This document shows positions 3,001 through 45,000 of a stretch of 64,000 bases of DNA, in pieces (position 1 is the stretch's first letter; every line of letters begins with the position of its first letter). The notes beneath the pieces were generated by a model. The model was given only the letters and a program-made list of their open reading frames with translations, made no database searches and was not told the DNA's origin. This stretch comes from Candidatus Omnitrophota bacterium. GTDB lineage: Bacteria > Omnitrophota > Gorgyraeia > Duberdicusellales > 4484-171. Both the position numbers and the translations under genes were made by a program. Location of the stretch: assembly GCA_021735655.1 (NCBI GenBank), contig JAIPGM010000001.1, positions 64,001-128,000 of the forward strand, written 5' to 3'.

Positions 3001-6000
3001 ATAGGCACAAAACTAATTGTTCCGGGATTACGCGATACGCGCAATCTTTCTAGATCGTGGTTTATGGAAGAGCAGGGTGGAAAGCAAGTATTGCTTACGC
3101 CAATGAATCTTACAGCCAAGATGGTCGCTGAATCAGCTCGTCTAGTTAAAGATCTCTCGATCATGATGCCGCTTTTGCCGCATGTTCAGAATTATCTTTA
3201 TGAAAATAGTAGTGGTTGGAATTTTACTGATACGCTTCTTGGTGAGATGTTTGATATCCAGAAAATGCCGTCTGAAGTTTCCCGAGATGTCGTTGCTGCC
3301 ATTGAGGCCCTAAAAAAAGATCCATCTAAGGTAGATACCTTTATAAAGGAAAACATTAAAGATTCAGCTACCCGTGAAGCCTTAAGAAATAAGATCGATT
3401 TAATTAATAAGTCTTCTTTAGCTAATAAAAATCGCGAGATAAGAGAGTTAGTGATATCTACTTATACTGAAGATATGTTAACTGCTAGAAAAATTTCTAG
3501 TCATGGTATCGCCCGGCAGGCAATGGAATTAGGCCTTGATCCTAATGCTCCAAATACTTCGCTTTGGGATTTGCAAAAAAATATTGGAGTTGAACAGTTA
3601 AGAAATCAGCTTGATATTACAACTGGCCCAGAGCGTGAGCACATCTTGCAACAGATTAAAAACTTTGAACAAGCAACACCGTTTGAGTACAAGCTTAATG
3701 TGATGTCAAATTATTCATGGCAAGGTGCAATAACTGCTATGTACTTTGGTCCGACCATGCATTTTATAAGACCGATTTTAAACCCCGGTCTTAGTAAAAT
3801 GCCAGGCTTAGGTGAGTTTCAGTCGTTAGTTCAAGATTTCTTTGGTGATGGAGCTTTTATTGGCGATACGATGAGGAAAGTTGGTATAGACAGTATACCA
3901 TATATCGGAAAGCCAGTTGTTAACGCTGTTGGTAGGGTTATTGAATTCGGCGTTGAAGAAAATTTACGAGAAGTTGTCACTAATCTAGCATTTAGACAGG
4001 CCTTTGTTCAGATCGGCGGGTTTTTAGCTCCTCCGAGAAGAATGGATTATGCTTCTAATGCTGACTATTTTAGGGCTCAATCAGTTTATCAGCAGGCAAT
4101 GGAATGGATTGAGGAATCATTTGACGGTAAGGGGGTTTCGTTTGCTAGTGTCGCGGCTAATCTTAATTTAAATATTCCCACTCAAGCTCTTCAATCGCCA
4201 GGTAGTCCGACTAGTTCAGCTGTTTACGGTAGTGGAACCAGCCCTTTAAATAACGGCCGTGAATTAGCCACAGAGTTACTTACAGCTGAGGCAGATTATA
4301 CTGGTTATCATGATCCAAGTACAGTTGATATACAAACTGGTCCGGGAAGTTTTGCAACTTTGGCTGATCTTAGCTTGCCTTCATCAGGAACTCCAGCTGG
4401 CACTTCAGACTCAGCAAAAATAGTTTTAGTTCGTGGATTAACTAGGCAAACTGGTCAAGCTGACTTTGTTAATCCGGTTACCGGCGAAATTGGCATTGAT
4501 GCTTCCTTAGGAAAATATGATGCTTCTACTGGAAGGATAGCTCTTACCGATCAAGGTGGAGTAGCCGCACAACATGCTGCGGCTGAGTTTAGGGCGCACA
4601 GGGAAAACGCATCTAGAAAGGGTGTTTCATTAGAGGATTATAATACTTGGTTAGATAGTAATCCAACTGTGGCAAGAACAATCCATGATGGGGTTGTTTC
4701 TGATGGAGCCGTAGCACCGAGAAGTAATTTTGGTCTTTTTGCAACGCCGGTAGCTGATATTGTTGTTGAGGTTGGCGATAGACCAATAAAGATGAAGGGA
4801 ATAAAAGCTCCAGCTACAGCCGCAATTAATGGGATTTGGTCACTAAGCAGTGACAAGGAAAGAGTCACCACTTTAGATGGTTTAATTGGTTTTGTCAAGA
4901 GAGCGGTTATTCGAGATAAGGCTGCTGAGGTAAAGCTTAACACTGGCAGTGGTCAAATAGTCTTGACTGCTGACAATTTAATGGAATTAGAGATTTTAAG
5001 GGAACGTCTGGTTAATGTTCAAGGCAGTGTTAATACGGATGAGTTAATCAATAGAGCCCGTTATTCACAAGATAACGCGCGCCGTCTGGCTGCTCAACAG
5101 TCTTTAATTGAGACCCTTAACAATGATCAGCTATCAACACTTATTTCTGGAGAAGCAGTCGGTCAGTTAAAAATTGATTTTCTCCAGGAAGGTTTAACTC
5201 GAGCTATGGCTGGAAGGCCGAGTCAGCTAAGAAGAAAGATAGTTGGTGATGCTTTTGATAGATTAGGTAGTCGCTATAGAGATTTACCGCATGGGCTATG
5301 GTCTTTTTATCATTCTTTCCGATCAGCAATGAATCGGACTGAGTTCTATATGCATAAGGCTCAATTTAGATCTGACAGTGCACGTATAGATTTAGTTCAA
5401 AGGATTAGTGATTATCAAGATAGTCAATTCGGCCAAGGCGAGAGCAGCAGCCAAACTACGATTGCTTTGCAAGGTGTCTTACCTTATTATAGCCGTTATT
5501 TAAGGCGCGATGCTAATCGTCGCTTCTGGGCCCAGAAAGCTAACTCTGGTTTAGATTCTTATGGTCGCCTGTCACCATTACGATTGTTGCAATTAGCTGC
5601 CTGGAATCGGGAACTTAAATTAGCTGAATTCTACGTGGATGGATTTAAGACTGAGTTTGATGCTGAAGGTAAAATTGTAGTTAAGCCGCTAGACCCAACC
5701 AAAGATATAGCTTATGCTTTGGTCGGACGTAATGGAAGAGATTTTGATACTCCAATGCGCTGGGTTGAATGGCGGGCTGGTGATAAGTTGCAAGATTTCA
5801 TTTTCAGGTATGACCTTAAGGCTGATAAATTGCTTGAGTGGGCTTTTTATAAGGCAACGGATAATAGTGGATTGAAAACTTTAAGAAAGGCTTTAGGTCA
5901 TAGTGATGACCCTTATCCACCAATAGTTATGGAAATGAGCCAGCATTGGGGTGATCTTGATGATGACCCTGTTATTGCCCGTAAAAATAAACAAATTAAA

Positions 6001-9000
6001 GTTGCTAAGGTTTTTGAACCTGATTTTATTAGTGTTCCGGGCGTAGATACTCGTCGTCAATGGCCCATTGGCAAAGGACTAACCTTAACTCAAATCGATG
6101 ATAGCTTATATCAGTTAGAGGGAACATCTGATTCAGGAGAAGCGATTGACGAACCTATTGATTTTTCTGTTATAGGTAGTAGATCTCTAGAAGTGACAGT
6201 GGGCTCTGAAACTATCAAATTTTCTCGAGCTAAAAATAATGCTGCCATTGTAGTTACTAAAGCAGGAAAAGAAAGCAAGCTAACTGAGCACAATGTTCAG
6301 CTGTCTTTAAAGGTTGATGTTGATGGTAAAGAAGAAGAGATCTCAGTGACACTTGCAGAAATAGCTAGAAACGATAGCCTTTACCTTATATATCCTAGTC
6401 AGGCTCGAGGATATGATATTACAATTATTCATCGCAAGATGGGCGGACATCAGCTAACCATAAGGCCTTATGCCATTGATGTTTCTGGTAGTGATGATTT
6501 ATCGGATGTTGGTCCTCGTAGTTTGGTTGAAGATTGGAAAGATGTTTTACCTGAAGCAGAAGAGGCAACTGATAAACCTGGATTTAAGAAAGAAGCTGAT
6601 AAAGATGGTATTTTAGCTAGCTTAGAGGCCATCAGAGATGATGCAATGGCTGGCGATCCCGACGCTAGAGAAGCTTGGGGTCAATTAATTGATGATGGTG
6701 TGGCGGCTGGTCTTTGGGAATCTGCTAAAAAAGGTCCTAAATGGGATGGTTCTGGTCCGGCGATTAGTAGTATTGGAGAAGGTGACAATGGATCTGAAAA
6801 CCTAAGTATAGCTGGCAAATGGTCAAAACATCAAAAGATTAAGCAGATCGAAATGATAGTTCGTCTTAGTGATGGCCAGGAAGTTTCAGTTCCAGTAACA
6901 GTGTTTTATATTGAAGGTTTAAGAGCAAGCCATGTTGGTTTTTATGACGGAAGACCTTCTATATACTTAACTTACTATTCTGACTATTCACATGAGCTCG
7001 GTGAAATGCAGCGGCATTTACAGGCAATGGCTGACCTTGATTTATCAGCTACTAGCCGGACGGATATTGAGGAATATTATAGTAAGCTCACTCCTGAAGC
7101 CGCACGAGCTATCCATGATCAGGTTATTGGCGAGGCTATTGATGGTCTTATTAGTCAAGGTATTTTGCCGGGGAAGGATCCTTTGGCTGAATATGAGAAG
7201 TTTGTAGAGTTAAGGCATGCTCGTGAAGACCTTGAAAGAGCAACAACCAGTGAAGGTTTAGCTAAAGCTCACAAGAGGTTAAATGATTTATCTTTTGAGG
7301 CTAGTGATATGGGCATGAAGCCTAGCCGTGTTTTAGCAGTTGAAGCTGGAGTTGATCAAGAGCCGTCAGATAGCCAGACTAATGATAGCCCGTTTGTTCC
7401 TTCTAATCGCATACCTATGATACCGGGCTCTTCTTCACCAGTTGGCTTACCTAATCCTGTTCAGACTCCGCTTGGCCCAAAAGGACTTTCGCCTTTATCT
7501 ATTATTAGAAGGACATCAACTTTTATTACAAATTTAAGGGGTTATCTGGGTTTATCACCGGCTATAGCTGCTGAAGTAGGCGCTGTGCCGAGTGACAGTA
7601 GAAGACAAATAGATGCTTTAACAGCTAAGATTGACGATGAGAGTGATATAAGCTTTGGAAGATCAGCGAATTCGCCCGGCAAGACGGTGGTCCATGCCGT
7701 AATTGCCTTTGTACGGCGATGGATCAATTTTACAGAGGGCAAAATAGCAGTTGGATTTACAAATTTTGGTCATAAATTTGACCAATTTGAAAAAAGAATC
7801 AGCTCTTTATTAGGAAAAATAGGCAGAAATGCCACTTCTGAAAGCGAAAGAGGTGTATCTGGAAGCGCTAGGAGTGTATCTAGAAACGGAAGCCAGGCCG
7901 GAGTAGCTTTAGACAACGGAAAGGATTTAGAAGTCAAAGCTAACCCTGAAGATGGCCGCAGACCGTTAAGAAGAGCTGAGAGTAAGCTTATAGCAGGAGT
8001 AGATAGCATACCTAATAGTAGGGATGCTGAAGAAACTCAAGCTGAAGAGATTGGCTTGGGTGGTAATGGCAGTGGTTCACAAAATGGTGGTCAAGGAACT
8101 TTAGGCGGTTCGTCTATAGAGATCGAACTACCTGTAATTTTAGATTTACGACGTCTTCATGAATCCTTCAGACCAGTAGTAGTTGGCCATAATGCCTCAA
8201 AGGCTCAGGCTCCGCCTGCAAATTCAAGAAAACAAGCAAGTTTAATTTTCTATACCCACCCAATAACTGTACTTGCTTTAGGTTTTATCTTTTTAGGCTT
8301 AAAAATTCCTCAACTTTTACCAATATCCATATTAATAGCTTTAGGTTTATTAGCAATATTGCCGCTTTCTCGGATTCTACCAAACGTGGCCGGTGGGTCC
8401 TTGAGAGCGGCTTTTGATTTAAATCAATGGACCCATCCTACTGTCGAAGTTGCCTCTCCATCAACCTTCCTGGCAAGTGGGTCCCGTAATAATAGTTCCA
8501 GTAGCTCAATCCACACCGATAAGGTTGCCTCTCCAACTTCTAAATTGGTTGTTGGGCTTTCTGGAACTAGTCTTAATAGAGGGGTAAGTAGTAATAGTAG
8601 CAGTAAAACAGAACAAGGGGGTGCAAGATGGTCAGTAACATCAGATCGCTCAGGTTTCAACACTTGGTTGTGGCAACCGATGGAACGATTTTTGCATCAG
8701 CTAGAGACAGCTTTGACCGCATTGAGAACTACATCGTCAGCCGTTTTGGAGATGTTAAGCGCCAGGTTAACACGCGTTTTGAACCGGTTAGATCGGATGA
8801 GGCAGGATGGATTAAGAACCTTATCGGAGTTCCTCAGACGATTCCGATCTATCGGGCAAAGAACATTAGCGTTAGCTAGCGCTGAGAGAGGGTCCGTGGC
8901 AGGACAATTTTCTAAGGGGGTCCGTGGTAGACCACTCGATAATGGCCGAGCTAAAAGATTAGCATCTCGAGCTTTGTCAATAATTACTGCTTTAGCTGTT

Positions 9001-12000
9001 TTAGGTTCAGCTAATGTTGTTCAGGCAGCTGAAGCAGGTCAGGCAAGTGATAGCGAAGTAAATGTGGGGTTAGTTTTAGCAGTTGTTTTTGCGGTAGCAG
9101 CAGTTTTAGCAGGAATCAGTTTTAGAATTTATGCCGGACAGAGGATCAAAGATATTGAATCTAAAACTGGAATCCAAGATAGCGCAAGAATTACTAGAAT
9201 CAGAGCAATAATTGAAGAGTTAAAACAAGAAGCTCTCAGGTTAGCTCAAGTCGCTCGAGAAAATGCGATGATAAAGGTTCTAATAGCACCTCAGGGTGAC
9301 CCATATAGAAGACTTAGTGCTTCTGAAATAGAAAAATTAAGAGCTAACCAGAAACCAGATGTAGAGTTGAGATTGTGGGATGTAACTGTGAGCGGAACCG
9401 GAACCGTAAGAATAATTTATGGTTTTAGCGAGGATAGAGTTGATTTCATAGTCATTGCTACCGATGGCGTTGTTCGAAGACAAAGTTTACCACGCGATTA
9501 TGTAGTTGATTCTATTGTAAGCGATAATGTAATTGTCGATTTATATCGTGGGAACCTCAATACTCAGCGAATCATAGAACATAGCATATATCAACGCTTA
9601 ACATCAATTATTGGTAGCTACAACGCAGAATTAGAAGCTGCCCTTGAAGAGGCTGAAGCTAATTCAAAGCAAGCTAAAGAACTATTAGACAGTAACCAAA
9701 GACTATCAGCTCGTGCCATTCGTGCTAGAGCTCGTCAAGCTGCTAGCTTAGCCGGAGCAGCCATTGATAATGCTACAACCTTAATTGAAATCGCCATCTC
9801 ATTGAATGTAGCTAGATTAAGAGCTCGAGCTAAAGTCTTAGAGAGAGAAGCTCAGGCTACTTTAAGACAAGCTGAAAATAAAATACAGAGACCACTTGAT
9901 AATGGTCGAGTGAAAAATGAACCATTAATAGGTTTTAGTCCTAATGGTTTTCATGAAAGTAAACTATTTACAATAATAACGCTAGGTTTGCTTTTATTAG
10001 CCGTAGCAGCAACAGTGACCTATCCGATTTACGCGTTAATGTATTTATCAATACCGCTCGGTGGAACTATCATTCTTTATGCATTGCTCGCTTCTGCGGC
10101 AGTTTTCTTTTCTATTAATTTTATTAACCTTCTTAATAGGATTGAATATTATCTTTTAATCAGTCGAGCACCACAAGCTGAACAAAGTCTAATTAAGGCA
10201 AGGAACTATGTAGAATTTCAGGATGCAGTCTATGCAATAGCTAGAGAGGCTGGAATTAGCATTCCTCATATAGATAGTATAGGCCAAGCTGAGGTTATTA
10301 TTGATAAAGTTACTGCGTCGCTTGAAGCTAGGGATTTAGATAAAGAAAGAGTTCAGGGAATAAGAACAGCTTTAGAGATGTTATTTTTAGGCGATGGTTT
10401 TGCTTTCGATCTTTTCGCTGCAGCCGTCTATATGATATCTTATCGAGACGAAAATAGTAGGTATCCAGCTTGGGTAAGCGGGTATCAAGAGAATGTTGGA
10501 AGAGTATACTATTCCAATCATCGTAAAACTCGTTCTCATTTGGGAAGTTTCTATCCTTGGTTGAGCATTCTACCTCATGAAGCCATGCATGCATTTTTAG
10601 CTAGAGCTAATTTAATTGATGGCGGAGCGATCGGTGAGGAGATCGCTACCAAAGCTGCTCGTATGAGCGAAAACGTAATAATTAGAGAGGTAGTTTCACC
10701 GTCAACCGCTTGGGAATCTTACCTGAGAAATCATTGGGGAGAAGTTCAAGATGGCTATTCTCATGATGGACAAGAGGTAGAGGTATTAAATATCAGTTCA
10801 ATGGCCCTACGAGGAATTGCTTTAATTCGTTTTATTAGAAATTTACTTAGCTTGAGGCTATTTCAATTGAGAGAGCTAGCATCTTTAGCAAGAGTTATAT
10901 TATTAGGTACACCGAATACAACTCTTGGTTTAGCATTTGCGCTTGATAATGGAAAGAAACCTACTCGAGTATGGAAAAGAATGCCTAGTTTGCAGACGGT
11001 TTATGAAACAAGAGGCAACAGAATTGACCGTTTTTTCCGAGCCATAATGTTAGCTGAGACTTTTGAACAAGAGGAAAAGGCTGTTAGACTAGCTAAGAAA
11101 ACCCTTAACTCAGATGATTATCTCAAATTAATGAAAAGAATTATGGCTTCAGTTGAGGTTGTCGCTGATGATGATCAGACTGATAGTAGAGCAACTCCGC
11201 TCGACAATGGCCGTTCAAGAAGGGTAATACCTAGAACCTTATCAGTAATTGTTACCTTAGTTGTTTTAGGTTCAACTAAAACAGCCTTTGCTTCAGGAGC
11301 AGTCGCTGCCGGCTCAGCAACAGTGCCTTTTTGGGGTGTAGTTGCTATGATTGTTATGGGGCTAGCTTTTGCATATATGTTTGGTTTTGTAGTTTATAGT
11401 ATGATTCGTAGTGCCAATATTGGCGGCCGAGATGAAATTAATGAGTTAAGGGATCGGGTTAGAGAGTTAGGTGGAAGCAAAGCTTTAAGAGAAGCCGGAA
11501 CCCCTGAAGAACTTATTGGAAATCTAAACAGTAAAGGCCAGGTTAGTGAAAACGAAATAGAAGGAGAGCTTGATGTAGTAGAAGCTCAAATTAGGAACAT
11601 TGAAGAAAGTAATAGTTCAAGTTGGTCCCAAGATCAGTTAGTTAGCTTAGAGGGCTATAGAGATGAATTAAGAAGAGAACTACTTGAAGCACAAGAACGA
11701 TTAAGAGTTTTAGAAGAAGAAATTGCTGGAGATATTCGTGCTTTTGAAAGAGCTCATGAATTAAATGTACCTTATGCAGCAGATGGTGATTTAGAAGAAG
11801 CTCCTCAGCCAAAAACTGTAGTTGGTAGAACACTCAGATTAGCTGGTCAAATTGCTAAGGTAGCCGTGGTAGCTACATTTGGCATAATGGTTATTGCATC
11901 TCCGGCTACCAGTTTTGCAGGATCTACCTTTGGTCAGTCGGCAGATGGTTTGGCTATGGACCATAATTCAGATATGGATGATCAGGATATAGACATGGAT

Positions 12001-15000
12001 CATTCAATGGGAGCTGTTTTACCGAACACAGAAACATTAACAACTGATGAAGTAGTTTTTGATCCTTCTTCAGTTATTGATTCTTTGTCAGATCAAGCTG
12101 GGGTTGATATAGCCGACACAGCACATTTTAATAGAGAGCTTAGTGGAGCTAAAGATAAGGTTGTTGTGTTAGATTTTTGGGCTACTTGGTGTGGACCTTG
12201 TAGAGACGTGGCTCCACTTTTAGAAGAAATTGCTGAGTCTGATGATAATATTAGGTTATTGAAAATTGACATTGATGACAACCCTGAAATTTTTAATAAA
12301 TTTAAGGTAGTGGATAAGGTAACTGGCAAAGAATTAGTTCCTCAGATACACGTTTTGGTCCATAATCCTAAAAATGGAAATTGGGAACGAAGAGAAGCTT
12401 TGGTAGGTAAAAAGAGTAAAAATCAGATAGAGGCTAGCCTCAGGCCATACTTAGCTGGTTTGGCTAAAGCTGAAACAGAAAGCGATAAGCCGGCCAAGGA
12501 AGCTTCTGAGGGCGAAGCAAGTAGTGGTCATTTTTCAGTTCCTTCAGGGGAAGCGGATTCTAAAGATTTGGCCGAAAGAAGGATTGATGAGATAGAGAAA
12601 AAACTTGTAGCTGAAAAAGAATTAACTGAAAAGAAAAATAAGGCTGATCAAGCTTTTAGCAGCGGTGATTACAGAGAGGCTGCTGAGCTTTATGAGGAAG
12701 TTTTAAATTCGGATTTAGCTAAGGGAGCTTTAGAAGCAATCGCAAAAACAAAGTTGGCTGTTGCTAAGCAGAAAATTGAAGTAGGCGATTCCGATCAGAA
12801 TATTAAAACCACTGCTGTTGGAGATGATAAGGTAGCTCCTGAAAATGAGAGCTTACAGCAAGTTATAGACCAAGGTTTAAAACAAACATCCTCAGCGACT
12901 ATTAACGAAGCGTTAGTTAAGTTAAGAACATATAAGATTGAAGAAGGTAGCTTGTCTGATGAATCTTATAGAGCACTTAAGGCTGAACAAGAAAAAGCTA
13001 TAAGTTTGTTAGTTCAGAGAGTAAAAGCTGTTACTTTTGCTGAGCTCAAAATGCAAAGAGCAATTGAAGCTTCAAATTACAATAAAGCCATGAATGAAAT
13101 CGGTAATGTTTATGTAGAAACATCTACTGATGGTTTAACTAGAGCAATTACCGATGCTATTAATATTCAAGCTCAACACTTAGAGAGTGTATTGACGGCT
13201 ATCCACGTTGCAGACAGGACAGACAAGATTGATTTTGCCTTGAAAGTACTTAAAGAAAGTAAAGGTAAGAATTTACTCCCAGAGGAATTAGAAACAAAAC
13301 TTCAACAAAAAGTAGATAGAGCTATTGGCGAGCTCACAGCAAGAAAAGCCACAGTTGGTCAAGAGACTGATTCAATAAGAGCGCCACCAACTGATAAACC
13401 AGCTACTGAAGAAGCAGAAGCGTCCACAGATTATTCAAAGGTCGGTATTGAGCAATTGACAGAATTGGTAGATGCTAAGATTAAATCTCAACTTTCTCCG
13501 GAAGAGAAAAAAGTTTATGAGGCAAACAAAAACAAGTTAGATTATTTAAAGAAAAATCATCCGGATCTTTTTAAGAAACTTGTTGTTATTGCCGAAGACG
13601 ATATAAAGGCTTGGTTCGAAGCTAACCAAAAACCAATTGTTCAAGCTCAACAAACAGAAATACATAGAGCCGAAAATGTTCTTAAGCAATTCTTAACAAG
13701 ATTTGGCATAGAGTTTAATCAGCCGCGCTATGTAATGGTTTCGGAAAAATTACTTGATGGTCGCTTGGGCGCAGTTTATATTTTATCTCCGGATACAGTT
13801 ATTCTATCTGATAAATTTGAAGTTAAGCAGAAGGTTAGACCGCAAGGAAGGTCTCAGGGACGAAGCCTAGTCGCCCTTGAACCAGCTGGTTCAAATATCG
13901 AAGCTGCTAATCCTAATGAAAATTCTTTAGCTATCGTAGTTATTCATGAGAATCTTCATTTAGTTAAAAATTCTGGTTTAGGCAGCGATCAGATTAACGA
14001 AGGATTTATCCAACATACAACTGATATATTAGCAAAGCAAAATAATTTTAAAGTATCTCACGATCTATATGAACCGCAAAAGGCAGTTATTTATGCCTTA
14101 GAGGCAGAAATAAGTAAAGTTGCCGGAGTAAGCTTAGCTCAAGCTTACGATATGGTAGCCAAAGGATACTTATTAGGAGATACCAGTTTTATTTCAGCAA
14201 ATATTGGAGAAGGCTCCTGGGAAGAAATTGTTAGTATTTCTAATGAATATAGAGATAAAATGGCTTTTGATAATAATCCGTTGCTTTGGGATAAATATGT
14301 ACCTAGAGTAGCTAAAAAATTAGGGGTTAATGACGAAAGCTTAAAAGATCAGCCTAGAGGTTTGAGAGAGAGAGCTAAGCAGTCAGTGGTTGAGTTAGCC
14401 GTTGTTGTTGGAAAAGTTCAAGAGTCTGACAGCGTAGAGCCCGAAGTATCAGACCAAGAGTTACCTAAAGAAGAGGTCAAGAAGGCTGATGGTGATCAAT
14501 CTGTAGATGCTCAGGTTTATTCTTCAGCTCGAGGATTGAATTTAAAGGATAAACAAGAGGGCGAGCAGTTGCAGCAAGCATTCGCAAAAGCAGTTGTTGG
14601 CAATAATGTACCTGAAGAAGCGTTTGTTGTTACTGGCGATACAGATAAGAATTTTTCTGTTAAAGGCAAATTAAGTAATGAAGATGTTGTTAGTTATAGC
14701 ACTAAGAAGATATCTGAGCGCCAAGAGCAGGGATCTCTTACTGCTGGCAGTTTAATAAAGGTAAGAGAGGTTGGTGGAGATAAGAGTTTTCTCTGGCAGA
14801 CACATTTGGGTGATGTTTATGAATTTAAGGCTGACGGGACAGTAAGTAAACTTATTGATGCACGTGATCAAACGGCCTCTAAAATTAAGGTAAATCCAGC
14901 TGAAGAAGGATTGCTCGATACAATAGGCAGGCATGCTTATGAACAGATGCAGAGAGGAATTACGAAGGGATCTATTTTTAACTCTCAAGAGGAACAAATA

Positions 15001-33000: not shown

Positions 33001-36000
33001 GCTCCTGACTATGAAAATTCAAAAACTCTTAATGTTATAAGCAAGGATAATGGTAGAAAAGTACGCTACGGTTATAAAGATTTGAGTGATGATAGCCTTT
33101 ATCTATTTGATTTGATTGAAACATTCCAAGCTCTTCGAGGACCAGGAACTTTAACTACTACCAAGATTGATAAAAAGGTAGGCACACTTGATACTGAAAC
33201 AATAACTGTAGTTGCTTCTAATGGTTCAGAGGTAGTAATTAATCCAATTGGCGATAAGCTTGTTTCATTAGACAAATCTTCAGGCCGAAAAATCTATTGG
33301 GGTCATCAAAATAGATTTGGAATGTTTTTATTCTCAATGCAAGATTTAACTTTAGTTAACGTTGGCGATCCTTTAACTGGAAGAAAGATTGATCAAAATG
33401 TAAATAGCACACCGGTAAGTGCAAAAGTAGTGGCTACTGACCATTCTAACCGAATAGTTATTTTAGTAAACGGAAATGAGCTTAATACCTTAGATGCTCT
33501 CGGTGAGGTTAGAAGTGATGGTTATGGAGAGATGGATAAAAACGGCGATTTATTTTTATATGGCACAGAGTTATTGAATGCAAGGCCAGGCCAGATTATC
33601 CCAATCTATCCGATTGATCCAGATACTGTTGAGGCCGATAAAGCTAGAGGGGCCAAGGTAATACTTAAGATTAGAGGGGTAGTTGGGGTGGATGGTGTTA
33701 CTACCAAAGCCGTTTGGTTTGAAGTTTATGAGGCTAAGAATTATGATGCTACTACCAAAACATTTACCGGCCAACCAGAATCAAGTGAAATCCATTTAAT
33801 TGAAGCTGGCTCTAAGCCGAAAAAACTATATCTAAAAGACGATAAAATAACCCTAGAAGACCTTTGGTCAGTAGATCGGGCTGATTTTGGCAATCGCCAT
33901 ATTGCTACTGTGGCTGTTGATAAAGATAATTTTGGTGAAGTTGCCAAGGCGATTTTAACTGGCAAAATTGATACCTTAGAAAAATCAGGCGTAACTATTA
34001 TGGTCCGTGAAAGAAGCGATAGCGCTATCTGGTTTGACGTATTTAATGAAACCGGAAAGCGCCTTAGCAGCGAAATCCATATAAATGGCGACAGTCAAAC
34101 TTATATTGTTACCGGTAAAGACTCAAGCGCATTAATGTTGCTTGATGCAGAGGAAAATGCCGACAAAGATGGTTTTCGTAAAGTTTTTAAAATTAACTTA
34201 AGCTCTCCTGAGTCGTTAGAAAAAGTTGCTAAGGCTTTACGTGATCCGGAGAGTAAAGCTTTACTCGGAGAGGTAACTGGTACAATTGGAAAGGTATTTC
34301 ATGACAATGAGCATATAATTTTGTTTGCTTTTGACAGCGAAGGAAAGCTATCTCGAGGTTTACTCGAAGAGGTCGGTCCTACGGCAACTGATCAGCCGCT
34401 ACCGTTTAGAGTAAGAGATGGAACCATCAGAGTTCTTTGGGGAGAGGATGCTTCACAAACTGTAATCGTTGATGGATCGGAAATGCATTATTTAAAAGAA
34501 CGAGCAGTTGACGCTAAGGCTTTTGAGGCAAAGATAAGAGAAGCCACCACCTTTAAAGAAGTAAAAGATTTTCTTGATAATACTCCCGATACTGGTTTAG
34601 TCGCTTTAATCGTCAGCCAAGATATTATTTTTAAGGGAACCCCGGCAGTATTGAACCGGATATATATTCCCGGGTTATTACCTTTATACGAAGTAATTTC
34701 CAATACCGAAACTTCTAAAGTTTCTGAGTTTGAAGGTAAAGTTGAGGCTCGTTTTTATCCCTACACTCAGGAAAGAAAACTATTAGATCCTAGCCGAAAA
34801 GACCTTTTAACTGTTTCAGGGATGATGACCGTTGACGAAGGTCAAACCTTTAAAGATTTGCCAGTTGGATTACAGCAGACTCTTACTGATAAATATGGAC
34901 CAATTGCTCCGGATGCAGCGATAGTCCATCGTCACTTCTATAAGCAAGACGGTAATAAATACGATGAAGTACGTCAGCCCGGCGGTAGGGCTGATTCTTG
35001 GTTGCAAGGCTATGTTATCGAAGTTGACCATGCTATCGTTGTTGGTGGAAAAGAGTTACGCCAGGTAAATGGTAAGGATCTTAAATATACCATTGAGGTT
35101 GATAGAAAAGGTAATTTTGAAATCGCCCGCGTACATATTGATCATGTTGAATTGGCAACTATTGTTAAGGATCCAGAAAGCGGTAATATAGCTGCTATTT
35201 TTAAACCGGAAACCGGTCTTGTCCCCGATGAGGCCATACTTAGGATTGCTCAATATATTGACATAAATGGTATTGATTCATTTAATGTATCGGATAGTGA
35301 AAAGCAGAAAATAATTGTTGTTGCTAACGATATTTTAGAAAGAGATCTAAGGGCAGTGCCGATTACCGATGGCGAAAGAGAGCTAGTATCTCAGTTGATT
35401 TCGCGAATAAGTTTTCAGGCTGATTTTGTGGCTAAAAAATACTATAAGCTTGGTCAATTGCATAAAATTGTACTTGCGGAAAAACCACGAACAATTAGCG
35501 ATATCATTGGTTCTGTTGGTAATGATCCGATAGCCCGCGCTAAGATTGATAATAGACTTAAGGTGATTAGCCAAGGTTTAGGCCGACAGATGCCACGCGG
35601 CGGAGTAGCAGCGTTGACTATTACCCCTAGTTTGGTTTTACAGCTCAATGGGAATATTATGCGTGAGTATCGTTTTAAAGAAGATCGTTTAGCCAGGCTA
35701 ATTGCTTTTGAACAAGGTCAGGAATTGGCAGTTAATGTAGCGTTTAATAACCGAGGTGATCCAGTTCAAACCTTTAAGCTTTCAAAAAGCGAGCATTCAG
35801 ACCGTCAGGTTGGCTCACAAGTAATTGCTTGGGGCCAAACTCCGATGGCCGAGCGTGATGGTGAAATTTCTGATGAAGCTGATAGCTCTGAAGCTAAAGT
35901 TATCTTTGAACAGGATATTCCGGAGACTGCTCGGGCATTTCAGGAATTTGCCGCTAGCTTGAAAGAGAAACATGGGGTAACGGTTACCGGAGATCTCTGG

Positions 36001-39000
36001 GAAGCGATGGGTAAAATGGGAATTGTTCCGTCAACCATGATTACTCGCAGCGTACTTTATGAATATCCGCATAGTGGTAATATTGGTTCAACCAGCTTTA
36101 CTTCACCGCTTATTGAAAATAACGGTAGGGTTGAGATTGATCCGCAATATCGTGATTCAACTAAACAGATTGAGATGCTTTTTGTGCCTAATGATCCGCA
36201 AGGCCGGACATTGGCAACTAGATTTATTACCGAAGAAGGGTATAACTGGGTTATTAATATGTGGGGGCTTAAGGGCACCGATGCCCCGTTAGGAGTTTTG
36301 CCGGCCAGCATAACTATTAAATATGAAAATGGTAAATATAGCGGTTATGAGTTTAGCCGCTTCAAGCAATCAATTAGCGGCGAAGAATTAAATGCTGAAT
36401 CAGGTTTGAATTTATATAGTGGCCTGCAGGCTTACGAATATGAAGTATTTAATTCCGCTGTTGTACGTAATGTAATTTATTCTTCACAGGCTCAACTTTT
36501 AGGCGAGCGTTATGCTTTTGTAACTGGCAGGCCGGCTAAGGAGATTTTAGGAACCTCAACTTTAAACAAACCAGCGGTTGAGACTTTGTTTTTTAATCCC
36601 AACTCATCTTTACGCAGCCCGGTCAGATCAGTGTTAACAGTTGAACAAGAGCTAGCTAATAAAATTATAATTCCTGAGATGATCGATGATCAACATTGGA
36701 TTACTCCGCCTGGCGAAACAGTGTTGATTCAAACCGATAAAGGCATTAAGCCGGCGGTTAGGGTTGTGGTTAAAGATCAATATAGCGTACGCTACGAAAT
36801 AGAAGAAGGTAAACAGATTACCTATATTGTTGCTTTAGAGAGTGAAGGTTCAGCAATCCATACTAGATTTTGGCAAGAGTCAAAATTCATCGGTGACAAA
36901 GCAATAACTAAATATCGCGTAAACATAACTGATGAGTGGAAGGCTGATTTAAAAGCTAGTGCAAAATATATAGCTTTTATGCCGCTTGTGCTTGCGGCAA
37001 TTGTGCTTTTAGGTTTTATTTTATCTAAGGTCGGCTTTACTCTAAGAAGGGCCTTGCAGCTTTTAGGATTAATCTTTGATGTCGTCATTAGACCGATACT
37101 TTTAATTCCTCATCTTTATAAAATATGGAAATACGGAAGCAGCAGTACCGGAGATTTCTTTAGACGTTGGCTTTGGCCGTTTGGCTTAAAGGAGTCTAAT
37201 CCTTATGTTCATGCTTATAAGGTTTGGCTAGCTATTAGCGGAAAAACCGACGAGAAATTTACTGAAGGCATTAACAACCCCGACACTACTGATACCACTG
37301 AAGCCGAGATTACTAAATTGTTTGAGGAGATGTATGAGTTCTCAGTTAAACTTAAAGACGCCCCTGATTTTGTATTGTATCTTGTTTGGAGAAAGAGGAT
37401 GGGGGCAACTGAAGCTGAAATGGAGGAGCATAAAGACATCTGGTTTGATATTATTGTAGCCAACCAGAACTTTACAAAAAAAAGCAAGGGTACAGTTACC
37501 ATGCAGCATCGTTTTCATTATGACGATCTTGGTAATTTGTTCAGAACCCGTAAGTTCATTGATCGTTATGAACAATACAGAGAAAGTGGAAATCTTGACC
37601 CTTACCGAAAGTATGTTGATTTATTAAACAGCGATCTTGGCGCTATCAACTTATCGCGCCGTCAGCTACTTGAAATAATCCACTATAGTGGCAGTTTAAT
37701 TAATTCATTAAAGTATAGGGGTCGACATTCTGAGTTTGGATTACCTAGCGAAGCAATACTTTGGAAAACATTTCGCACCCTTGACGGTGGACCTTCAGGA
37801 TTATTTGGTTGGTTGGGCATTGCTCGAATACTTTTCAGACAAGGCTCGATATTTGCTATAAGTTTCTTTGTATTCTTAGCTAAATACTTACCGTTAGCAA
37901 AAATTGTAGCCTTCCTTTTTAGTAATCCTTGGATTATCTTAGCTTTAATTGCTATTGCCCTTAGCTTAGGAATATATACTTATTTAAGAAGAAATTACGA
38001 CAAGGTAAGTCATATGGGTCCGGCCTCAAGAGCATTAGCTTATCCTTTTGTTTTAGTTGCTTCAATTGTTAGAAGCGTGTTGAATGCCTATACTTTAAGC
38101 ATAGCTGCCATATTTGCCGGTGGAGTATTAATGAATGATGCGGCAGCTTTCAGTGGTGTAACTGGGTTAGCTTCTTTTTCTGAGGCAGCTTTAGGTAGTT
38201 TAAAAGCAGTTTCCTTAAGTGATCCTTATGTATTAAGCTTTATATTGATGCTAGTTGCTTTGTTTGGGATATTTGGCTTTTTGGATAATATGATTTCAGT
38301 TAAATATAACCCAACCAAGAAAGAGTTCGGCTATGCACCTTTGAGAGACGCAAAGTGGTTTAGTGAAATTGTTTTTTCTGGTGGAATGATGTTGCTTACC
38401 TTTGGTATAAAATTTGTCCTAAACTACTTTACTTTTAAATTTGTAATGGTTCCAACTAGCAGTTATTTGGCGAGCTCTTATGCTCCGCCAGCTTGGGCTT
38501 TTAAAACATATTTGGCTATAATGGCTATTGTAATTGTTATTGTAATTACTGTAAAACTTGTTGCTTATATTAGAAAGCTTAATGCAGTTAGAAAGTCAGA
38601 TACGGGTAAAGTTATGGCAACAGTATGGAGTGATATCAAATCTTTAAAACTTGTTGCTTATGTTAGAAAGCTTAATGCAGTTAGAAAGTCGGATACGGGT
38701 TCAGTTATGGCAACAGTATGGAGTGATATCAGATCTTTAGGAAGAGGCGACATTGGCGATTGGATAGGATTTGCCTTTAAGTGGTTTAGTTTAATTGGCT
38801 TGCCTTTGTTGCTTTATTTCTATGGGCAAGTATTTTTAGTAATTGTCCTTTGGCTTCCTTTTGCTGCTTTTTATATACTGGATACTTTCTTTGTTTTCTA
38901 TATTTTAGAGGGTATAGCCGGATACTTGCGTGGCAGCTACCTTGGTTTAAACCGAATAAGGAATTGGCCGCAATTAGTGGCTAATTTTCCTCATTTAAAA

Positions 39001-42000
39001 CAGGCCATTAGGGCTAATTATGCTCATCGGGGAATTCGCAAGGCTGATGGGTCACGCCTAACTAAAGAAGAAAGAGACTCAATAGTTGAGGAGATTTGGA
39101 ATGGAATAATAGAGCATGTTTTTAAGGAGGATAGACTTTTCGAGGAAGAAAGGGATCGATATTCTTACACGGCTGATGGTGGTCCCAATCTCATAAAAGC
39201 ACCGGAAGAGGATGAGGCTTTCGATCGAATTATCTTTTTTGCAACTTCCATGTTCATGCATACACCGCGTATGCCCAAGACCTGGGCAGACTTACGTTCC
39301 CATGCTGTTGTTGATCCGGCTAATGATGAAGATGTCTTTTATAATTTTGAAGGGACAATTACTAGTTTAAATGAAGAAGCAAGGGTAGATCCTGACGATG
39401 ATTCTCTTCCCGGTGTACAGAAAACATTCTTGTGTTATGAGATTTATCTTTATTCTAACCAGTGGTTAAATTTTAAACGCCGAATGCAGGCCTCAGGAAA
39501 ATTCAGGAATACTGAAATTCAGGAGTTACAGAACATATACGATGCAGTTGTTAACGGAGACCTTACTTATAAATTAAAGTTAAAGGATGGAAGAAAGAGG
39601 CTAAGTAAAGCTTTGCAGGACGAAGTTCGTCTTTGGGCCTCTTATAGGTTCCAGCCGCTTATTCGAACTGTTCGGGGAATTGAATATCGTCGAGATGCTT
39701 TAAAGTTGATTGCTAATAGTGTTTATTTCAGGGGGCTTGGCTATACTGATGAGCAAATCAGAGAGGAAGTTAATAAGAAGTTTCGGTTTGTGCTTGGATA
39801 CCAAAGCTATGCTCGACAACAAGCGGATATGGTAAATCCAGAGAAGAAACTTTCAGAACGAATTGCAGCTAGATCTCGCGTAGAAGGCGTCAAAAAAATA
39901 ATGGAACTTTTCCCTGATATATTCGTTGCTAACTTAACTAAAGACGGAATATCAATTTGCATGCAAGGCGGCGAAGAAATAGGCAGCAAAAATGAGAAGG
40001 ATTTCTTTTGGTTAGGTCCTGAAGTTACTCAAGGTAAACCTGAACATCAAAAAGTTCTTTCAATCTGGGTTGATCACGACGGCGGTAATTATGATCATGT
40101 TGATACAGTGGATATGAACCAGGATGATTACTTTGAAGAAGCTTTAAAGCATCCGTTAGTCTTACAGGAGCATAGCCCTGATGTTGCTATTGTTGGTATT
40201 CCTGAGCATATTTTTACTGCTAGCTTTGGTAATGAGGGGAAACTGCTTGCCTTCTCTGATAGCACCTTTGCGAACATGGTTCAGAGGGTAATTGCTATGG
40301 GCGGTACACGTATGCATTATGGTCACCCGGATAGTTTCCGTAAACGATTTGCTAAACGTATGGGCTGGACAGCTTCTTCAAGCAAATTGAACGAAGATAT
40401 CTTTGCTGGATATCGGGCAATACGCTACGGTAAACGAATTAAGTTTATTGAATATCGCCGAGTCGGTAAGGCCCGTGAGGTTAAATTCGCGACTTCAGTA
40501 ATTTTATTTCAGAAATTCGGACGTGGTTCTGGTGAACAAGCTCATGATTTTATGTTATATGAACTTTATGAATGTCAGAACTTTGGTTTCACCAAAGGAA
40601 TGTTTTTCTTGATCAGCTCAATTGGTTTTTATATCAGGAAGCCGGCTGTTGTCTTAGCTGTCCAGGGTTACATCTTTACCTTAATCTTTATGGGTTTAAG
40701 TGGTTTTGTTTCTTTTCCTTTAGAAGCTTTTCTTGGAGTCTTGGGTGTTTTAGCTTCTCAGGGTATTGTGGCTACCGGTTGGTTTGAATTGATATTGCGC
40801 AAGGGCGTAATCCGAGGAACTTCTGATTTAATCGCGATGATGGCTACTGGAAATGTTCCTTTTTATATGGCTCATGTTTATACCAATGCTTTTGGGTTTT
40901 CTGAAGCTCAGGCCGGTATTGCTGGATACTTAGGAAGTGGTCGTGGACCGATGTTACATCATACTCCGATTTTCTATCCTAATTTTAAGTTAAGCTTATA
41001 TGGATTTTTAGAAGGAAAACAGCTTTCGAAAATGATGATTGTTAATATGGTATTTATTATAGCCGGTATAGTTATCTGGCAGAGTCCGCCGATTCTTTGG
41101 TCAGCCTTATTTATCTTGCTTCCTTTTGCGGCTTACTTTTATCCTAATATGTCTAACCCGGGAGCATTACCGATAGGCGTTACTGTCGGTAGATGGCTTG
41201 AGATATATAAATCTGATCTTTCTTTATGGCGCAAAACCATAGCTTCTGATAATCCTCTTTGGGAAGGTAAGAAATTAGACGTAGTGCTTCACGGAGCAAT
41301 ATTATTTCCTGTATTATTAATAGTCGGTGGTTTTATAGCTCTCTTTATTAAGTTACCGGTTACCGTAGGCCGTTGGTTAAATTCTCAATTTTCTGACCGA
41401 GGCCATGTAATCTCGACCTGGGCTATTAATTTGATTGGTGCGGTGTTTGGTGTGGTTTACTTAGCCAATATGTTGGTTGATAAATTACCTCAATTGGGCA
41501 ACATCATTGAAGCTTCACCGATGGCTGCGGCAATAGTTGCGGCTATAGTTATTGCTCGAGTCCTTCTTTACATTGGAAGTTACTTTTATAATTTGATCGC
41601 TGCCCGTTCTCATCAGGGAGTAAGTGAGGCAGTAGCGGCTTTAACTTTAGCTGGAATTATTCTTGCTGGGTTGAAGTGGGGTTTAGCGCTTAAGGCTTTA
41701 GTAGTTGGCTGGTTTAGCTGGTTACCAGCTTTGTTAGCTAGTCCGATTGGCCCTTGGGTTGCTGCAGTCTTATTGGTCCTTGCAGTCGCAGCAATTGTAA
41801 TTATTGCTTTACCGAGACGTATGCAAACTCATCCTACAGTACCGGCTTGGTTTGTTATTATGGGTGGTTTAGGTTTGCTACTAACAACATTAGGGGTACC
41901 AATAGTGATAAATACCCTTACTATATTTGCTGCGATTGCAGTGGGTTCGTTTGTTAATGGAATAGTTGCTCAGGATTTACCAAGAAAGGCTAAAGAGAAG

Positions 42001-45000
42001 AGATTAAAACGTAACCAAGCATTACCTTACCCGGCAACTATGCCAATAACTAATAAATTAGATCGTTCGCTTACTGAAAGTGAAAAAGAAAAAGTTATTT
42101 TAGCTTTTGGCGGAAGCGATGCCTTGGCAACTAATGGTATAGAGTTGAATGATCAAAATCTAGTAATGAGTCCGGCTCTTTCAGCTCCAGCTGAAGTAAG
42201 AGGCGGAGTTCTATATATAAATCCTAATACTTTAAGAGGTCCACCAGAACAGCTAAGAGTGATATTTGAAGGCCATGAATTAGCTCATTTTTTAGGAATG
42301 GATGAAATTCAAGCCAGACAATATACCATCGACTATCTTTTAGCGAATGGTTTACTTGAGAGCCACATTGCTTTCTTAGAGAATAATTCTATTGGTCTTG
42401 TAGCTGATCAGGAATGGTTAGAGGCTTTGAGCCAGAAATCAGTTTCTTTGGATAACGGAATTGAGCTTAAAGTTTATAAGTATAGGCCAGGAGTAAAAGT
42501 TGCTGTTGCTCAGATAGATCCGTCAATTTTACAGCCGCATATTTTAGTTTCCAGTGAGTTGGAAGGTAAGTTGCATTCGGTTGATCGTCGCTCTAACTAT
42601 GTATTGTATTATGATCATGAGACTGGCGAGCGTCTAGATAGCTTTCCTGAATCACGCCTAAAAGTATCTACGGTTACTAGTTTAATTGAAAGATTCCAGG
42701 ATCTTCATCCAGATTCACGAATAGAGATTATTACTGGTAACGAAAACCTTTTCTATAACAAGCCGATAGTTACAGTTATAGCCAATAAAGCTTACCATGC
42801 TGTCGGCGTTGACATAGAGAATCGTAATTATCCTATGCTTGTAATTTGGGCTGACGGTGCAGTAACTATCGAGGAAAGTGTTAGTTTCGAGTTTACTGAT
42901 TTTGATCAAAATGAAGTCAGAGTGTTGATTAATGGGAAAGAAGAAGATATACGCTATGCTACGGTTATCCAGTTAGTTTTAAATAAACAAGGTGTTGTTA
43001 ATCCGGGATCCCAGTTATATTTCTTTGATGATATCAAACATTTATTTGCGATGCCACGATTCAGCTCAGATGACTTTCCAGGAACTTTACCCAAGGGTTT
43101 GATGAGCGGAGCCATATTTTTTATGGCTGATCAACTTCTATCTGAAAATGCCCAGCGTGTAATCGACTATTACGATTCACAAAATCCAAAAACTGTTCAG
43201 GATTTTAATTTAACAAGCACCGTTTTTAGCAGAAGTGCCGATGGCCAAGATCGGGTAAGATTAATCAATATACCAGCAGAGTTATTAGAAGCTAGGTTGT
43301 TTGAAGCCGGATACTTACCTGATGACTATTCTATTGATCAAAGAAGAGGTGTAATTACTATAAAGCTTAGAGAAAATGTTTATCCTTTTCATATTATTGG
43401 AGTTACAAGTGATGGATTGGTGAAGGAGATAGTAGTTAATGGTAAATCTGGTAAGGTTGGTGTCACTGTAAGAGAAGCTGCCACTATTGCTCAAAAAGAG
43501 GGATTAATTAAGGCCGGAATAGTGGATCAAGGGATGACCGTTCGTTTAGATGTGGGTGATTTACGTTTTGGTAATGTTATAGTGGATAAACCTGGGCCTG
43601 AGAGGGCTAGTTCTTTAATCGTTTATACCCATATGCCTCTTGATAATGGTAAACAAAATAGACAATCGCCTCCCAGCGATGATAGATTAGGAGGAAGGGC
43701 TAGCCATAACGTGGCTGTGGCTGGTCCTGCTTCTAAGCCTTTGGATAATGGTCGACCAGGAAAGACCGAATGGAGCGATTTAATGAATCGCGTTGATCGG
43801 GTAAATGGCCTTAGGCAAGATGCACGAATAGCCGTAGTGCTTTATATAGTAGGAGTTGATCAAGAAATCGATGCCGGAACAAGAACAGCTCCTTTAACTG
43901 CCGGAGAACTACTGGTTAATGTTAATGGCGTAGGCCAGATAACTTCACGAAGAATTTTCCGAATAGTCGGTGAATTAAATCTTGCCGGAGTTACTTTAAC
44001 TCCGCTTGATAATGGAAGAGATAATCAATCCTCCCTCAGCGTTTCAGGGACCGACTTAAATCAATTATCGGGTGGATCAAGAACGCGGGCCTTAGAAGGC
44101 TTAAGTAGCTTCTACATAAAAACTAATTCAGTACCGGAGGGTATTCAAGAATTGTTTGATAGTCCTTCCGGATTATTAATAACCGTATCTGATTCTGATG
44201 GTGTGGTTGGCTATGCTTGGATTGATGTCCCAGCTGATGAGGATCAAGTACCAGCCAGGGTAGTCGTTAGTTTAAGTGACCGTCAATCTTTGGCAGTAGC
44301 TGAAAAGCTTAACCATGCAGTAATAAAAACCTTTATCGAAAGAAGTATCCTAAGTGGTAGTAAATTCCTCTTATCAACTCCTAGTGGAGAAAACCTTAAC
44401 TTCGCTCAATGGTTAAATCAACAATCACAATTCATCGCTGGTTTAGCCCAAGCCGGAATAGTTGTTGCTGACATTCAAACTAGTTTTTTAATTGAAGAAG
44501 GTAAACTAATGACTGTGACAGTAGCATCAAGACATCAAGATAAAACCAGAGCAAATAGAAAACCTTTAAATAACGGAAAACAAAATAGACAATCGCCTCC
44601 CAGCGATATAGATGGATCCCTGTTAAGGGATCAGGTAAGAGGAAGGGCTAGTCATGACGTGGCCGTGACTGGTCCTGCTTCTAAACCTTTGGATAATGGT
44701 AAGGATGTCGAAAGAGCAGAACATGTATTAGAACAAATAGGGACTGCTTTGGAGGGAGTTAAGGAATTAGTAAGTGCTCATTCTATTATTGTTGGCTTAT
44801 TAGTTGCCACGGTGCTAGTAGCGGTTAGCATTGGTTTATTCTTAGCCATCTGGCGCATATTCTTTTCAGTAAGTTGGTGGTTGCGACGATTGGAGAAGGT
44901 AGAGGCTAAGATGCAGATTCATGAGTTTTTTGTTCGTTTAGATCGGGATAAAGCTATAAAGCTTGTACAAAATATTTTAGCCAACTTCAGGGCAGAGCTT

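Follow-up and report, generated by a model that had tools for sequence, protein, structure and literature searches.

A single stop-free reading frame fills a 64,000-base stretch of a Candidatus Omnitrophota contig (GenBank JAIPGM010000001.1, positions 64,001 to 128,000 of the forward strand; hereafter the window, with positions counted from its first base), and the pentapeptide PLDNG recurs 30 times in the encoded chain, at junctions between complete proteins. The explanation we favor, to which we assign a probability of about one half, is that this giant open reading frame (ORF) encodes a polyprotein in which PLDNG is recognized by a dedicated endopeptidase, and that the one-residue variants of the motif are a mixed set with local effects on which proteins would remain fused. 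The original prediction, made on the window before any database search, took such near-miss motifs for former sites whose loss fuses neighboring proteins. This is supported by paralogy for the variants at nucleotides (nt) 21823 and 44563 and is plausible from context for those at 4243 and 7906, but it fails for the long PLDNG-free stretches that the variants were meant to explain.

Frame +1 is open at both ends of the window, and the remaining five frames contain 952-2749 stops each. Searches of Pfam and the Protein Data Bank (PDB) identified, in frame +1, thioredoxin, archaemetzincin (M54), GT48 glucan-synthase-like transferase, HAD hydrolase, methyltransferase, full-length UDP-sugar pyrophosphorylase, PEP-utilizers_C, NUDIX, HATPase_c (histidine-kinase), and phosphofructokinase domains, and approximately 50 hydropathy peaks along the window indicate transmembrane (TM) segments tiled among these enzymes. 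The closest relatives of the GT48 region are contig-filling ORFs of Candidatus Omnitrophota genomes, with 47% identity to one of these (P0001) and 30-34% identity to loci L001-L007. The order of domains in L006, GT48 followed downstream by a small HExxH domain (denoted HExxH-A, 48% identical), is the same as in the window. With at least 21,333 amino acids (aa), homology and shared order with these ORFs, and many enzyme domains accompanied by TM segments, the window represents a giant Omnitrophota multi-enzyme ORF. Such ORFs have been described as 'Archaeovorin' or 'multi-enzyme metabolic cluster' ORFs (West-Roberts et al. 2023, 10.1101/2023.11.21.568195; 2026, 10.64898/2026.06.07.730766), with no mention of a junction motif in either report. 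Proteolytic processing of the giant Omnitrophota proteins has been suspected from their C39 and S8 domains, which are reported near the N-termini, and the cleavage points were stated to be unknown (10.1101/2023.11.21.568195). No C39, S8, or SecA-DEAD-like domains were detected within the window (Pfam, E<=0.001-0.01), and both ends of the ORF lie beyond it.

The abundance of the exact motif, 30 occurrences in 21,333 aa, compares with 0.012 expected, and Lys or Arg directly follows PLDNG at 23 of these sites. The motif is encoded with four different Pro codons, five Leu, two Asp, two Asn, and three Gly codons. Synonymous codons thus drift while the amino acids stay fixed, which places the constraint at the level of the peptide, not of DNA or RNA, and rules out a nucleotide-level signal. 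Residues upstream of position -1 are not conserved among the sites, and disorder-promoting residues are over-represented in the flanks (Mann-Whitney P=1e-6). A position matrix separates the canonical sites, all scoring at least 23 bits, from the variants, the best of which scores 21.8 and the remainder 14.7 or less. As for codon usage within the motif, the rare Leu codon CTC is found at 7 of the 30 motif leucines, compared with 2.9% of the other Leu codons of the ORF (binomial P=2e-5), and the other motif codons show no clear deviation; local pausing of translation or a context effect could underlie the CTC excess.

The sites bracket complete enzymes. The 665-aa module between the sites at aa 16043 and 16708 contains a UDP-sugar pyrophosphorylase, with aa 16079-16655 matching residues 15-561 of the 600 in PDB 9uml (E=1.6e-71). 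Downstream of their respective sites, the HAD domain begins 17 aa past aa 15180, with HAD motif I about 20 aa past the same site, and residue 3 of phosphofructokinase aligns 46 aa past aa 20280; upstream, HATPase_c ends 4 aa ahead of aa 19644, and the M54 profile ends 9 aa ahead of aa 7513. Several sites precede a basic patch and a TM hairpin, that is, segments resembling protein N-termini, and some sites come in pairs, with spacers of only 12 aa and 34 aa between them. Polyproteins of the viral type are characterized by just such a short conserved motif at the junctions between complete proteins. The two canonical sites that lie 12 residues apart (23461-23511; PLDNGKESDLQIPLDNG) would delimit the shortest spacer if both were cut. 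Two module starts, at 44686-44748 (SKPLDNGKDVERAEHVLEQ) and 47650-47712 (SKPLDNGKDVSRAEHILGQ), are 76-80% identical over about 20 residues after the site, which suggests that they share an N-terminal element or that the junction was recently duplicated.

From these features, we infer that a dedicated endopeptidase would most likely recognize PLDNG, usually with Lys or Arg next, and thereby release the flanking proteins, probably with a cut at or beside the Gly-Lys/Arg bond or after Asn. The enzyme could be an archaemetzincin-type metalloprotease from this very ORF, tethered to the membrane, or a protease encoded outside the window. Recognition is likely to be stringent, with rapid decay of the motif once selection is released, given the 30 perfect sites, the sharp gap in the matrix scores, and one fully eroded partner site (see below). 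As none of the five residues changes at any of the 30 sites despite codon drift, the one-residue variants are probably poorly cut or uncut.

The candidate protease is located in the module at aa 7157-7512. Its domain, at aa ~7400-7505, matches PF07998 (E=1.5e-8, 35.3 bits compared with a cut-off of 24.4) through the end of the profile (194/194), as well as the archaemetzincin structures PDB 2x7m (E=5e-4), 3lmc, and 3zvs. The signature HExxHxxG...C-x4-C-x-M...CxxC is present (HELGHLFGINHECGCKTCIMHQADSTEEVARTKQFCKSC), including the four Cys of the second metal site; by this signature, with spacings of x4 and x15, and by the PF07998 match, the domain is classified as an archaemetzincin (M54). A role for it as the processing protease is plausible. 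Metzincins that require Lys or Arg at P1', such as ulilysin/LysargiNase, exist, so a cut between Gly and Lys or Arg is conceivable. The boldest form of the proposal, namely that a metalloprotease carried in a cellular polyprotein exceeding 64 kb cuts this chain into dozens of enzymes and that its products are edited in evolution by the killing of sites, is offered tentatively, as possible rather than probable. Altogether, six HExxH motifs were found in the window, compared with about 0.4 expected. Apart from the clear archaemetzincin, two belong to a small paralogous domain, HExxH-A and its paralogue (36% identity, E=1e-20), and of the other three, two lie in TM-rich modules.

The frame contains seven one-mismatch variants of PLDNG compared with 1.15 expected (P about 2e-4, 5000 shuffles), and five of these are followed by Lys or Arg compared with 0.13 expected (0/5000 shuffles). 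Since about one match is expected by chance, most of the variants are not chance matches, and about one should be. With 29 occurrences compared with 38.8 expected, there is no enrichment of two-mismatch forms. The six variants listed in the original prediction are all present in frame +1, except that SLDNG begins at 42445 and not at 42448, one codon off, and a seventh, ALDNG at 10939, had been overlooked. The accompanying claim that the variants sit where module boundaries would be expected fits 4243, 7906, 21823, and 44563, the flanks of which fall within the 90th-96th percentile of disorder propensity, and also 42445, at the end of a domain, but not 30673, which is inside a repeat (17th percentile). 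The seven variants are a mixed set, consisting of two decayed copies of the motif, two probable relics, two undecided cases, and one probable chance look-alike.

The two decayed copies were recognized through a family of spacers. A spacer of about 34-45 aa is found four times (hidden Markov model (HMM) i-Evalues 1e-25 to 1e-33), with the pattern PLDNG-KQ(T/N)RQS(S/P)PSD...G(R)AS.xVA...(S/A)SK-PLDNG. Two of the units have PLDNG at both flanks, the third has PLNNG (44563) at the first flank and PLDNG at the second, and in the degenerate fourth, both flanking sites are dead. PLDNN at 21823, the second flank of the degenerate unit, aligns column-for-column with PLDNG at aa 7547, 14580, and 14896, and a BLAST comparison of aa 7229-7278 with aa 7517-7550 yields 62% identity (E about 1e-8); the first flank of this unit has eroded to 'DYYFG'. 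The context of 44563, PLNNGKQNRQSPPSD, corresponds to PLDNGKQNRQSPPSD at aa 14546 and PLDNGKQTRQSSPSD at aa 7513, and its matrix score is the best among the variants. By the paralogy of the spacers, 21823 and 44563 are proven to be decayed copies of PLDNG. The degenerate spacer joins the TM hairpin that follows aa 7157 to the archaemetzincin domain, which is the clearest predicted fusion in the window and was absent from the original prediction; with both sites around this one spacer lost, the candidate protease would stay anchored in the membrane. At 44563, PLNNG would leave a 41-aa spacer on the upstream module. Where decay is certain, the effects on fusion are small and local.

For 4243 and 7906, it is the context that makes them probable relics of PLDNG sites. 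The codons at 4243, CCT TTA AAT AAC GGC, imply a change from D to N by one transition; Arg follows the motif, the upstream side is rich in S, P, T, and G, and the flanks are at the 90th percentile of disorder propensity. At 7906, P was replaced with A by one nucleotide change, Lys is at +1, the flanks reach the 96th percentile, and the matrix score is second only to that of 44563 among the variants. The residues upstream of both loosely resemble spacer ends, and the spacer-HMM scores (3.7 for 4243) are not significant. The proposed homology of the segment starting at 7906 to the starts of canonical modules was not borne out: in comparisons with seven canonical module starts, neither this segment nor that following any other variant exceeded a Smith-Waterman z of 2.6.

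ALDNG at 10939 and SLDNG at 42445 are less clear. The former is followed by Lys and lies 86 aa ahead of the canonical site at 11197, in the module with HExxH at aa 3526; its flanks are hydrophobic upstream, at the 12th percentile of disorder propensity on that side and the 46th overall, and comparison of the small modules for a homologous start at 10939 gave nothing convincing. Whether it is a decayed site is undecided. The latter, as originally noted, comes just after an HExxH domain, 3 aa past the end of HExxH-A, and thus lies at a domain junction, the other side of which is a weak NAGPA-like domain (PF09992, E=1.8e-4, residues 304-383 of the following segment). Its flanks are neutral (53rd percentile), there is no Lys or Arg at +1, and the equivalent position lacks a motif in both the HExxH-A paralogue and the L006 orthologue; the relic reading is plausible. 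By comparison, PLDSG at 30673 is located about 16 residues into a repeat unit (aa 10209-10362), where the paralogous unit reads 'KLDPRTGR', its flanks look folded, and at least two nucleotide changes separate its Ser codon, TCT, from AAY. It is most likely a chance look-alike within a folded tandem domain.

The original prediction also held that the longest PLDNG-free stretches contain several of the variants. The first of these, nt 11197-21469 (aa 3733-7157; 3,424 aa), contains no one-mismatch variant at all, and the second, nt 25984-43636 (aa 8662-14546; 5,884 aa), only two, PLDSG at 30673 and SLDNG at 42445, which are the weakest candidates. Because one stretch is free of variants, the other has the two weakest, and two-mismatch forms are not enriched, dead sites do not explain these multi-thousand-residue regions. 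The long PLDNG-free parts include arrays of repeats as well as the GT48 region with its multiple TM segments, and no cysteines are encoded in aa 1-4063 (nt 1-12189; 4,063 residues) or aa 7573-13144 (nt 22717-39432; 5,572 residues), compared with 31 cysteines in the enzyme-dense aa 14546-21333. The low cysteine content suggests that the PLDNG-free parts are extracytoplasmic. They probably represent a different class of modules, exported or membrane-embedded, in which a processing signal would be neither needed nor accessible.

The variants could alternatively be functional, suboptimal sites, at which slower cleavage sets the order and extent of processing and yields long-lived intermediates as in viral polyproteins, a possibility that we consider unlikely. 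The recurrence of PLNNG and ALDNG (each found twice), the presence of Lys or Arg at +1 in five of the seven variants, the conservative nature of the D to N and P to A replacements, and the linker-like context of four variants are all compatible with such tuning. However, the invariance of all five residues at 30 sites despite synonymous drift argues that single substitutions are not tolerated where cutting is needed, and the complete erosion of the partner site of the spacer at aa 7228-7284 resembles decay, not tuning.

Equally doubtful, in our estimation, is the possibility that the product stays uncut and PLDNG is a linker motif that is bound by a partner, such as a chaperone, a secretion or assembly factor, or a scaffold repeat, or serves as a hinge, the variants then being weaker or dead versions. 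Location in disordered linkers is usual for binding motifs, related giant ORFs manage without PLDNG, and scaffolding by HEAT and TPR repeats has been reported in giant Omnitrophota proteins (10.1101/2023.11.21.568195). What speaks for cleavage instead is the placement of the sites, within 4-50 residues of the ends of complete enzymes, ahead of N-terminal-like basic and TM segments, and in pairs around spacers of 12 and 34 aa, an arrangement typical of excision. Furthermore, phosphofructokinase, UDP-sugar pyrophosphorylase, NUDIX, and HAD domains, which are cytoplasmic, are interleaved with TM segments, so that a single topology for an uncut chain would be difficult, as far as crude hydropathy allows one to judge.

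That all the near-miss motifs are chance matches unrelated to PLDNG is highly improbable: roughly one match is expected by chance, and PLDSG at 30673 behaves like one, but this reading is contradicted by the excess of variants, in particular those followed by Lys or Arg, and refuted for 21823 and 44563 by the spacer paralogy. An action of PLDNG during translation, by 2A-like bond skipping or pausing, with the variants as non-skipping versions, would account for whole proteins being separated within one ORF and for the over-use of CTC, if that reflects pausing; but 2A peptides require about 18 residues of nascent-chain context, D(V/I)ExNPG-P, ending in NPG-P, whereas here, NPGP is absent, the residues preceding the pentapeptide are not conserved, and Pro follows the motif at one site only. 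Bacteria are not known to use 2A-like skipping, and we deem this explanation very unlikely as well. Other known types of motif were considered and rejected. PLDNG shares with the double-glycine leaders processed by C39 peptidases only a hydrophobic P4 and Gly at P1, ends in Asn-Gly, and is accompanied by no PF03412 match in the window; self-processing of the MARTX type is not indicated either, as the Pfam scans of the window revealed no internal cysteine protease domain; and PLDNG fits neither the sortase motif LPXTG nor the Rhs motif DPxGL.

Several observations weigh against processing of the giant ORF product at PLDNG. With a pLDDT of 41, a single-sequence AlphaFold model of the archaemetzincin domain does not confirm the fold, and archaemetzincins are not known to act as site-specific processing endopeptidases. 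A new N-terminal Lys or Arg would be a secondary destabilizing residue in bacteria that possess Leu/Phe-transferase. The two repeatedly found forms among the variants could be tolerated forms and not products of random decay. Finally, no homologous giant ORF carrying PLDNG was found in the collections searched. Nine related giant-ORF loci, with identity of 34% or less, were detected when genomes and metagenomes were scanned with the GT48 region; they contain neither PLDNG nor any other enriched short motif. Related Omnitrophota giant ORFs in which GT48 is followed by HExxH-A similarly show no PLDNG or other punctuation; if processing is general in Omnitrophota giants, it proceeds elsewhere without a recognizable signal.

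The other searches for the motif were negative as well. A site-context profile built from 29 sites identified no punctuation-bearing proteins among 1.84 billion representative proteins. Its single match was discarded: in this unrelated tandem Fn3 protein, the segment 'TPLDNGT.YTFEV' belongs to the fold itself. Scans of viral contigs found nothing, and 'PLDNG' appears in no relevant paper. A word-indexed protein search with aa 2500-3900 and the UDP-sugar pyrophosphorylase module returned no matches, with an index that is insensitive here, given that it missed the latter module though a PDB match at ~1e-71 exists. The PLDNG signal appears to be confined to the lineage of the window, which itself lies outside the collections searched. 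One related ORF from a different genome (L001, the same as P0002) ends at the contig edge with '...EEKPLDS', a motif-like but single and truncated instance that is uninterpretable.

Whether the giant Omnitrophota products act as one chain or are cut becomes a directly testable question with a motif that brackets the modules. PLDNG predicts exact termini that can be sought in proteomes, and it can guide the splitting of such proteins for structure prediction. The decayed copies provide an internal control, being naturally occurring substitutions of the site (D to N, P to A, and G to N) within its own surroundings. They also suggest that the architecture of the products evolves by loss of sites; in the clearest example, such loss would keep the candidate protease membrane-anchored. 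If the proposal is correct, the PLDNG sites would map, for the first time, where an Omnitrophota giant protein is cleaved, and bacteria would have an equivalent of the viral polyprotein logic.

Several features of the window lie apart from the motif. An in-frame 93-nt tandem duplication, 94% identical, is found at 38552-38739, shortly upstream of the GT48 domain, and a three-copy 255-nt repeat at 32467-33223, inside the tandem-domain array; these two features point to recent duplication events within the giant ORF. A tandem repeat encoding an A/E/K-rich segment at 15144-15652 (AEKAAEAKKVAD...) shows DNA periods of 18/36/51/87/123, with matches up to 96%. The minus-strand ORF at 15042-15638, the only one listed and the only long antisense ORF, sits on this repeat and was dismissed as spurious. 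GC content is 39-42% across the window, and GC skew is positive in all 4-kb blocks (0.07-0.21), that is, G exceeds C on the coding strand throughout.

Table 1. Coordinates of the giant ORF, the PLDNG sites and their variants, the spacer units, and the HExxH domains in the window
Feature	Position (aa)	Position (nt)	Strand	Remarks
Single ORF		1..63999	+	21,333 codons, 0 stops; internal piece of a giant Omnitrophota-type multi-enzyme ORF
PLDNG-R	2978	8932..8946	+	then basic patch and TM hairpin
PLDNG-R	3298	9892..9906	+	
PLDNG-R	3733	11197..11211	+	then basic patch and TM hairpin
PLDNG-S	7157	21469..21483	+	
PLDNG-K	7513	22537..22551	+	
PLDNG-I	7547	22639..22653	+	
PLDNG-K	7821	23461..23475	+	first of pair 12 aa apart
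PLDNG-P	7833	23497..23511	+	second of pair
PLDNG-K	8662	25984..25998	+	
PLDNG-K	14546	43636..43650	+	
PLDNG-R	14580	43738..43752	+	
PLDNG-R	14668	44002..44016	+	
PLDNG-K	14896	44686..44700	+	
PLDNG-T	15180	45538..45552	+	HAD domain 17 aa later
PLDNG-K	15884	47650..47664	+	
PLDNG-Y	16043	48127..48141	+	start of UDP-sugar pyrophosphorylase module, nt 48127-50121
PLDNG-K	16708	50122..50136	+	end of UDP-sugar pyrophosphorylase module
PLDNG-R	16816	50446..50460	+	
PLDNG-K	18016	54046..54060	+	
PLDNG-K	18214	54640..54654	+	
PLDNG-R	18542	55624..55638	+	
PLDNG-K	18821	56461..56475	+	
PLDNG-K	19030	57088..57102	+	NUDIX module next
PLDNG-K	19330	57988..58002	+	
PLDNG-K	19644	58930..58944	+	HATPase_c ends 4 aa before
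PLDNG-R	19881	59641..59655	+	
PLDNG-R	20280	60838..60852	+	phosphofructokinase residue 3 is 46 aa later
PLDNG-K	20957	62869..62883	+	
PLDNG-I	21152	63454..63468	+	
PLDNG-V	21240	63718..63732	+	
Variant PLNNG-R	1415	4243..4257	+	probable decayed site
Variant ALDNG-K	2636	7906..7920	+	probable decayed site
Variant ALDNG-KK	3647	10939..10953	+	K at +1
Variant PLDNN-S	7275	21823..21837	+	decayed second spacer flank
Variant PLDSG-R	10225	30673..30687	+	inside repeat unit aa 10209-10362
Variant SLDNG-I	14149	42445..42459	+	3 aa past end of HExxH-A domain
Variant PLNNG-K	14855	44563..44577	+	decayed first spacer flank; D to N by one transition
Eroded first site 'DYYFG'	7225-7229	21673..21687	+	PLDNG in paralogues; from spacer alignment and HMM
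Degenerate spacer unit	7228-7284	21682..21852	+	80.7 bits, i-Evalue 5e-25; both flanking sites dead
Canonical spacer unit	7508-7556	22522..22668	+	PLDNG at both flanks (aa 7513/7547); 90.7 bits
Canonical spacer unit	14542-14589	43624..43767	+	PLDNG at both flanks (aa 14546/14580); 87.6 bits
Spacer unit	14850-14905	44548..44715	+	PLNNG first flank (aa 14855), PLDNG second (aa 14896); 107 bits
Archaemetzincin module	7157-7512	21469..22536	+	PLDNG, basic patch, two TM helices, dead spacer, M54 domain with HELGHLFGINHECGCKTCIM...FCKSC
HExxH motifs	3526, 4649, 7459, 7964, 14092, 16925	10576, 13945, 22375, 23890, 42274, 50773	+	
Small HExxH domain 'A'	14010-14146	42028..42438	+	paralogue aa 16839-16986 (nt 50515-50958); orthologue in L006

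Among known systems, the archaemetzincins (MEROPS M54; PDB 2x7m, 3zvs) share with the candidate protease the HExxHxxG motif and the four-Cys second metal site. The domain in the window differs from the known ones in its spacing (x4 and x15 compared with x3 and x17) and in being embedded in the predicted polyprotein, with a TM-hairpin tether and punctuation spacers on both sides. In the MARTX toxins, a cysteine protease domain activated by InsP6 cuts after Leu in loose linker contexts; the resemblance lies in a large bacterial protein whose modules would be separable by a protease that it carries, as we propose here, whereas the motif is different, and the modules are housekeeping-type enzymes in place of toxins.

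Viral polyproteins offer the closest parallel in logic. In these systems (picornavirus 3C sites, nidovirus PLpro LxGG, retroviral Gag spacers), fused intermediates arise where a site is weak or dead. The window similarly has one ORF for many proteins, a short junction motif, a candidate protease within the chain, and spacers bounded by two sites, with cleavage inferred in our case. Unlike the viral polyproteins, the cellular ORF is at least 10 times longer and encodes modules of metabolic and envelope enzymes, its motif is invariant at five positions, and the candidate protease is a metzincin, in contrast to the chymotrypsin-like or papain-like enzymes of viruses.

The described Omnitrophota giants resemble the window in consisting of stop-free ORFs of tens of kb that encode glycosyltransferase, methyltransferase, NUDIX, peptidase, glycolytic, and PEP-utilizing domains along with TM segments. 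The window differs from them in possessing a punctuation motif, with no C39, S8, or SecA domain inside it. Giant Omnitrophota ORFs and polyprotein processing are both already known; what is new here is PLDNG punctuation combined with a self-encoded candidate protease.

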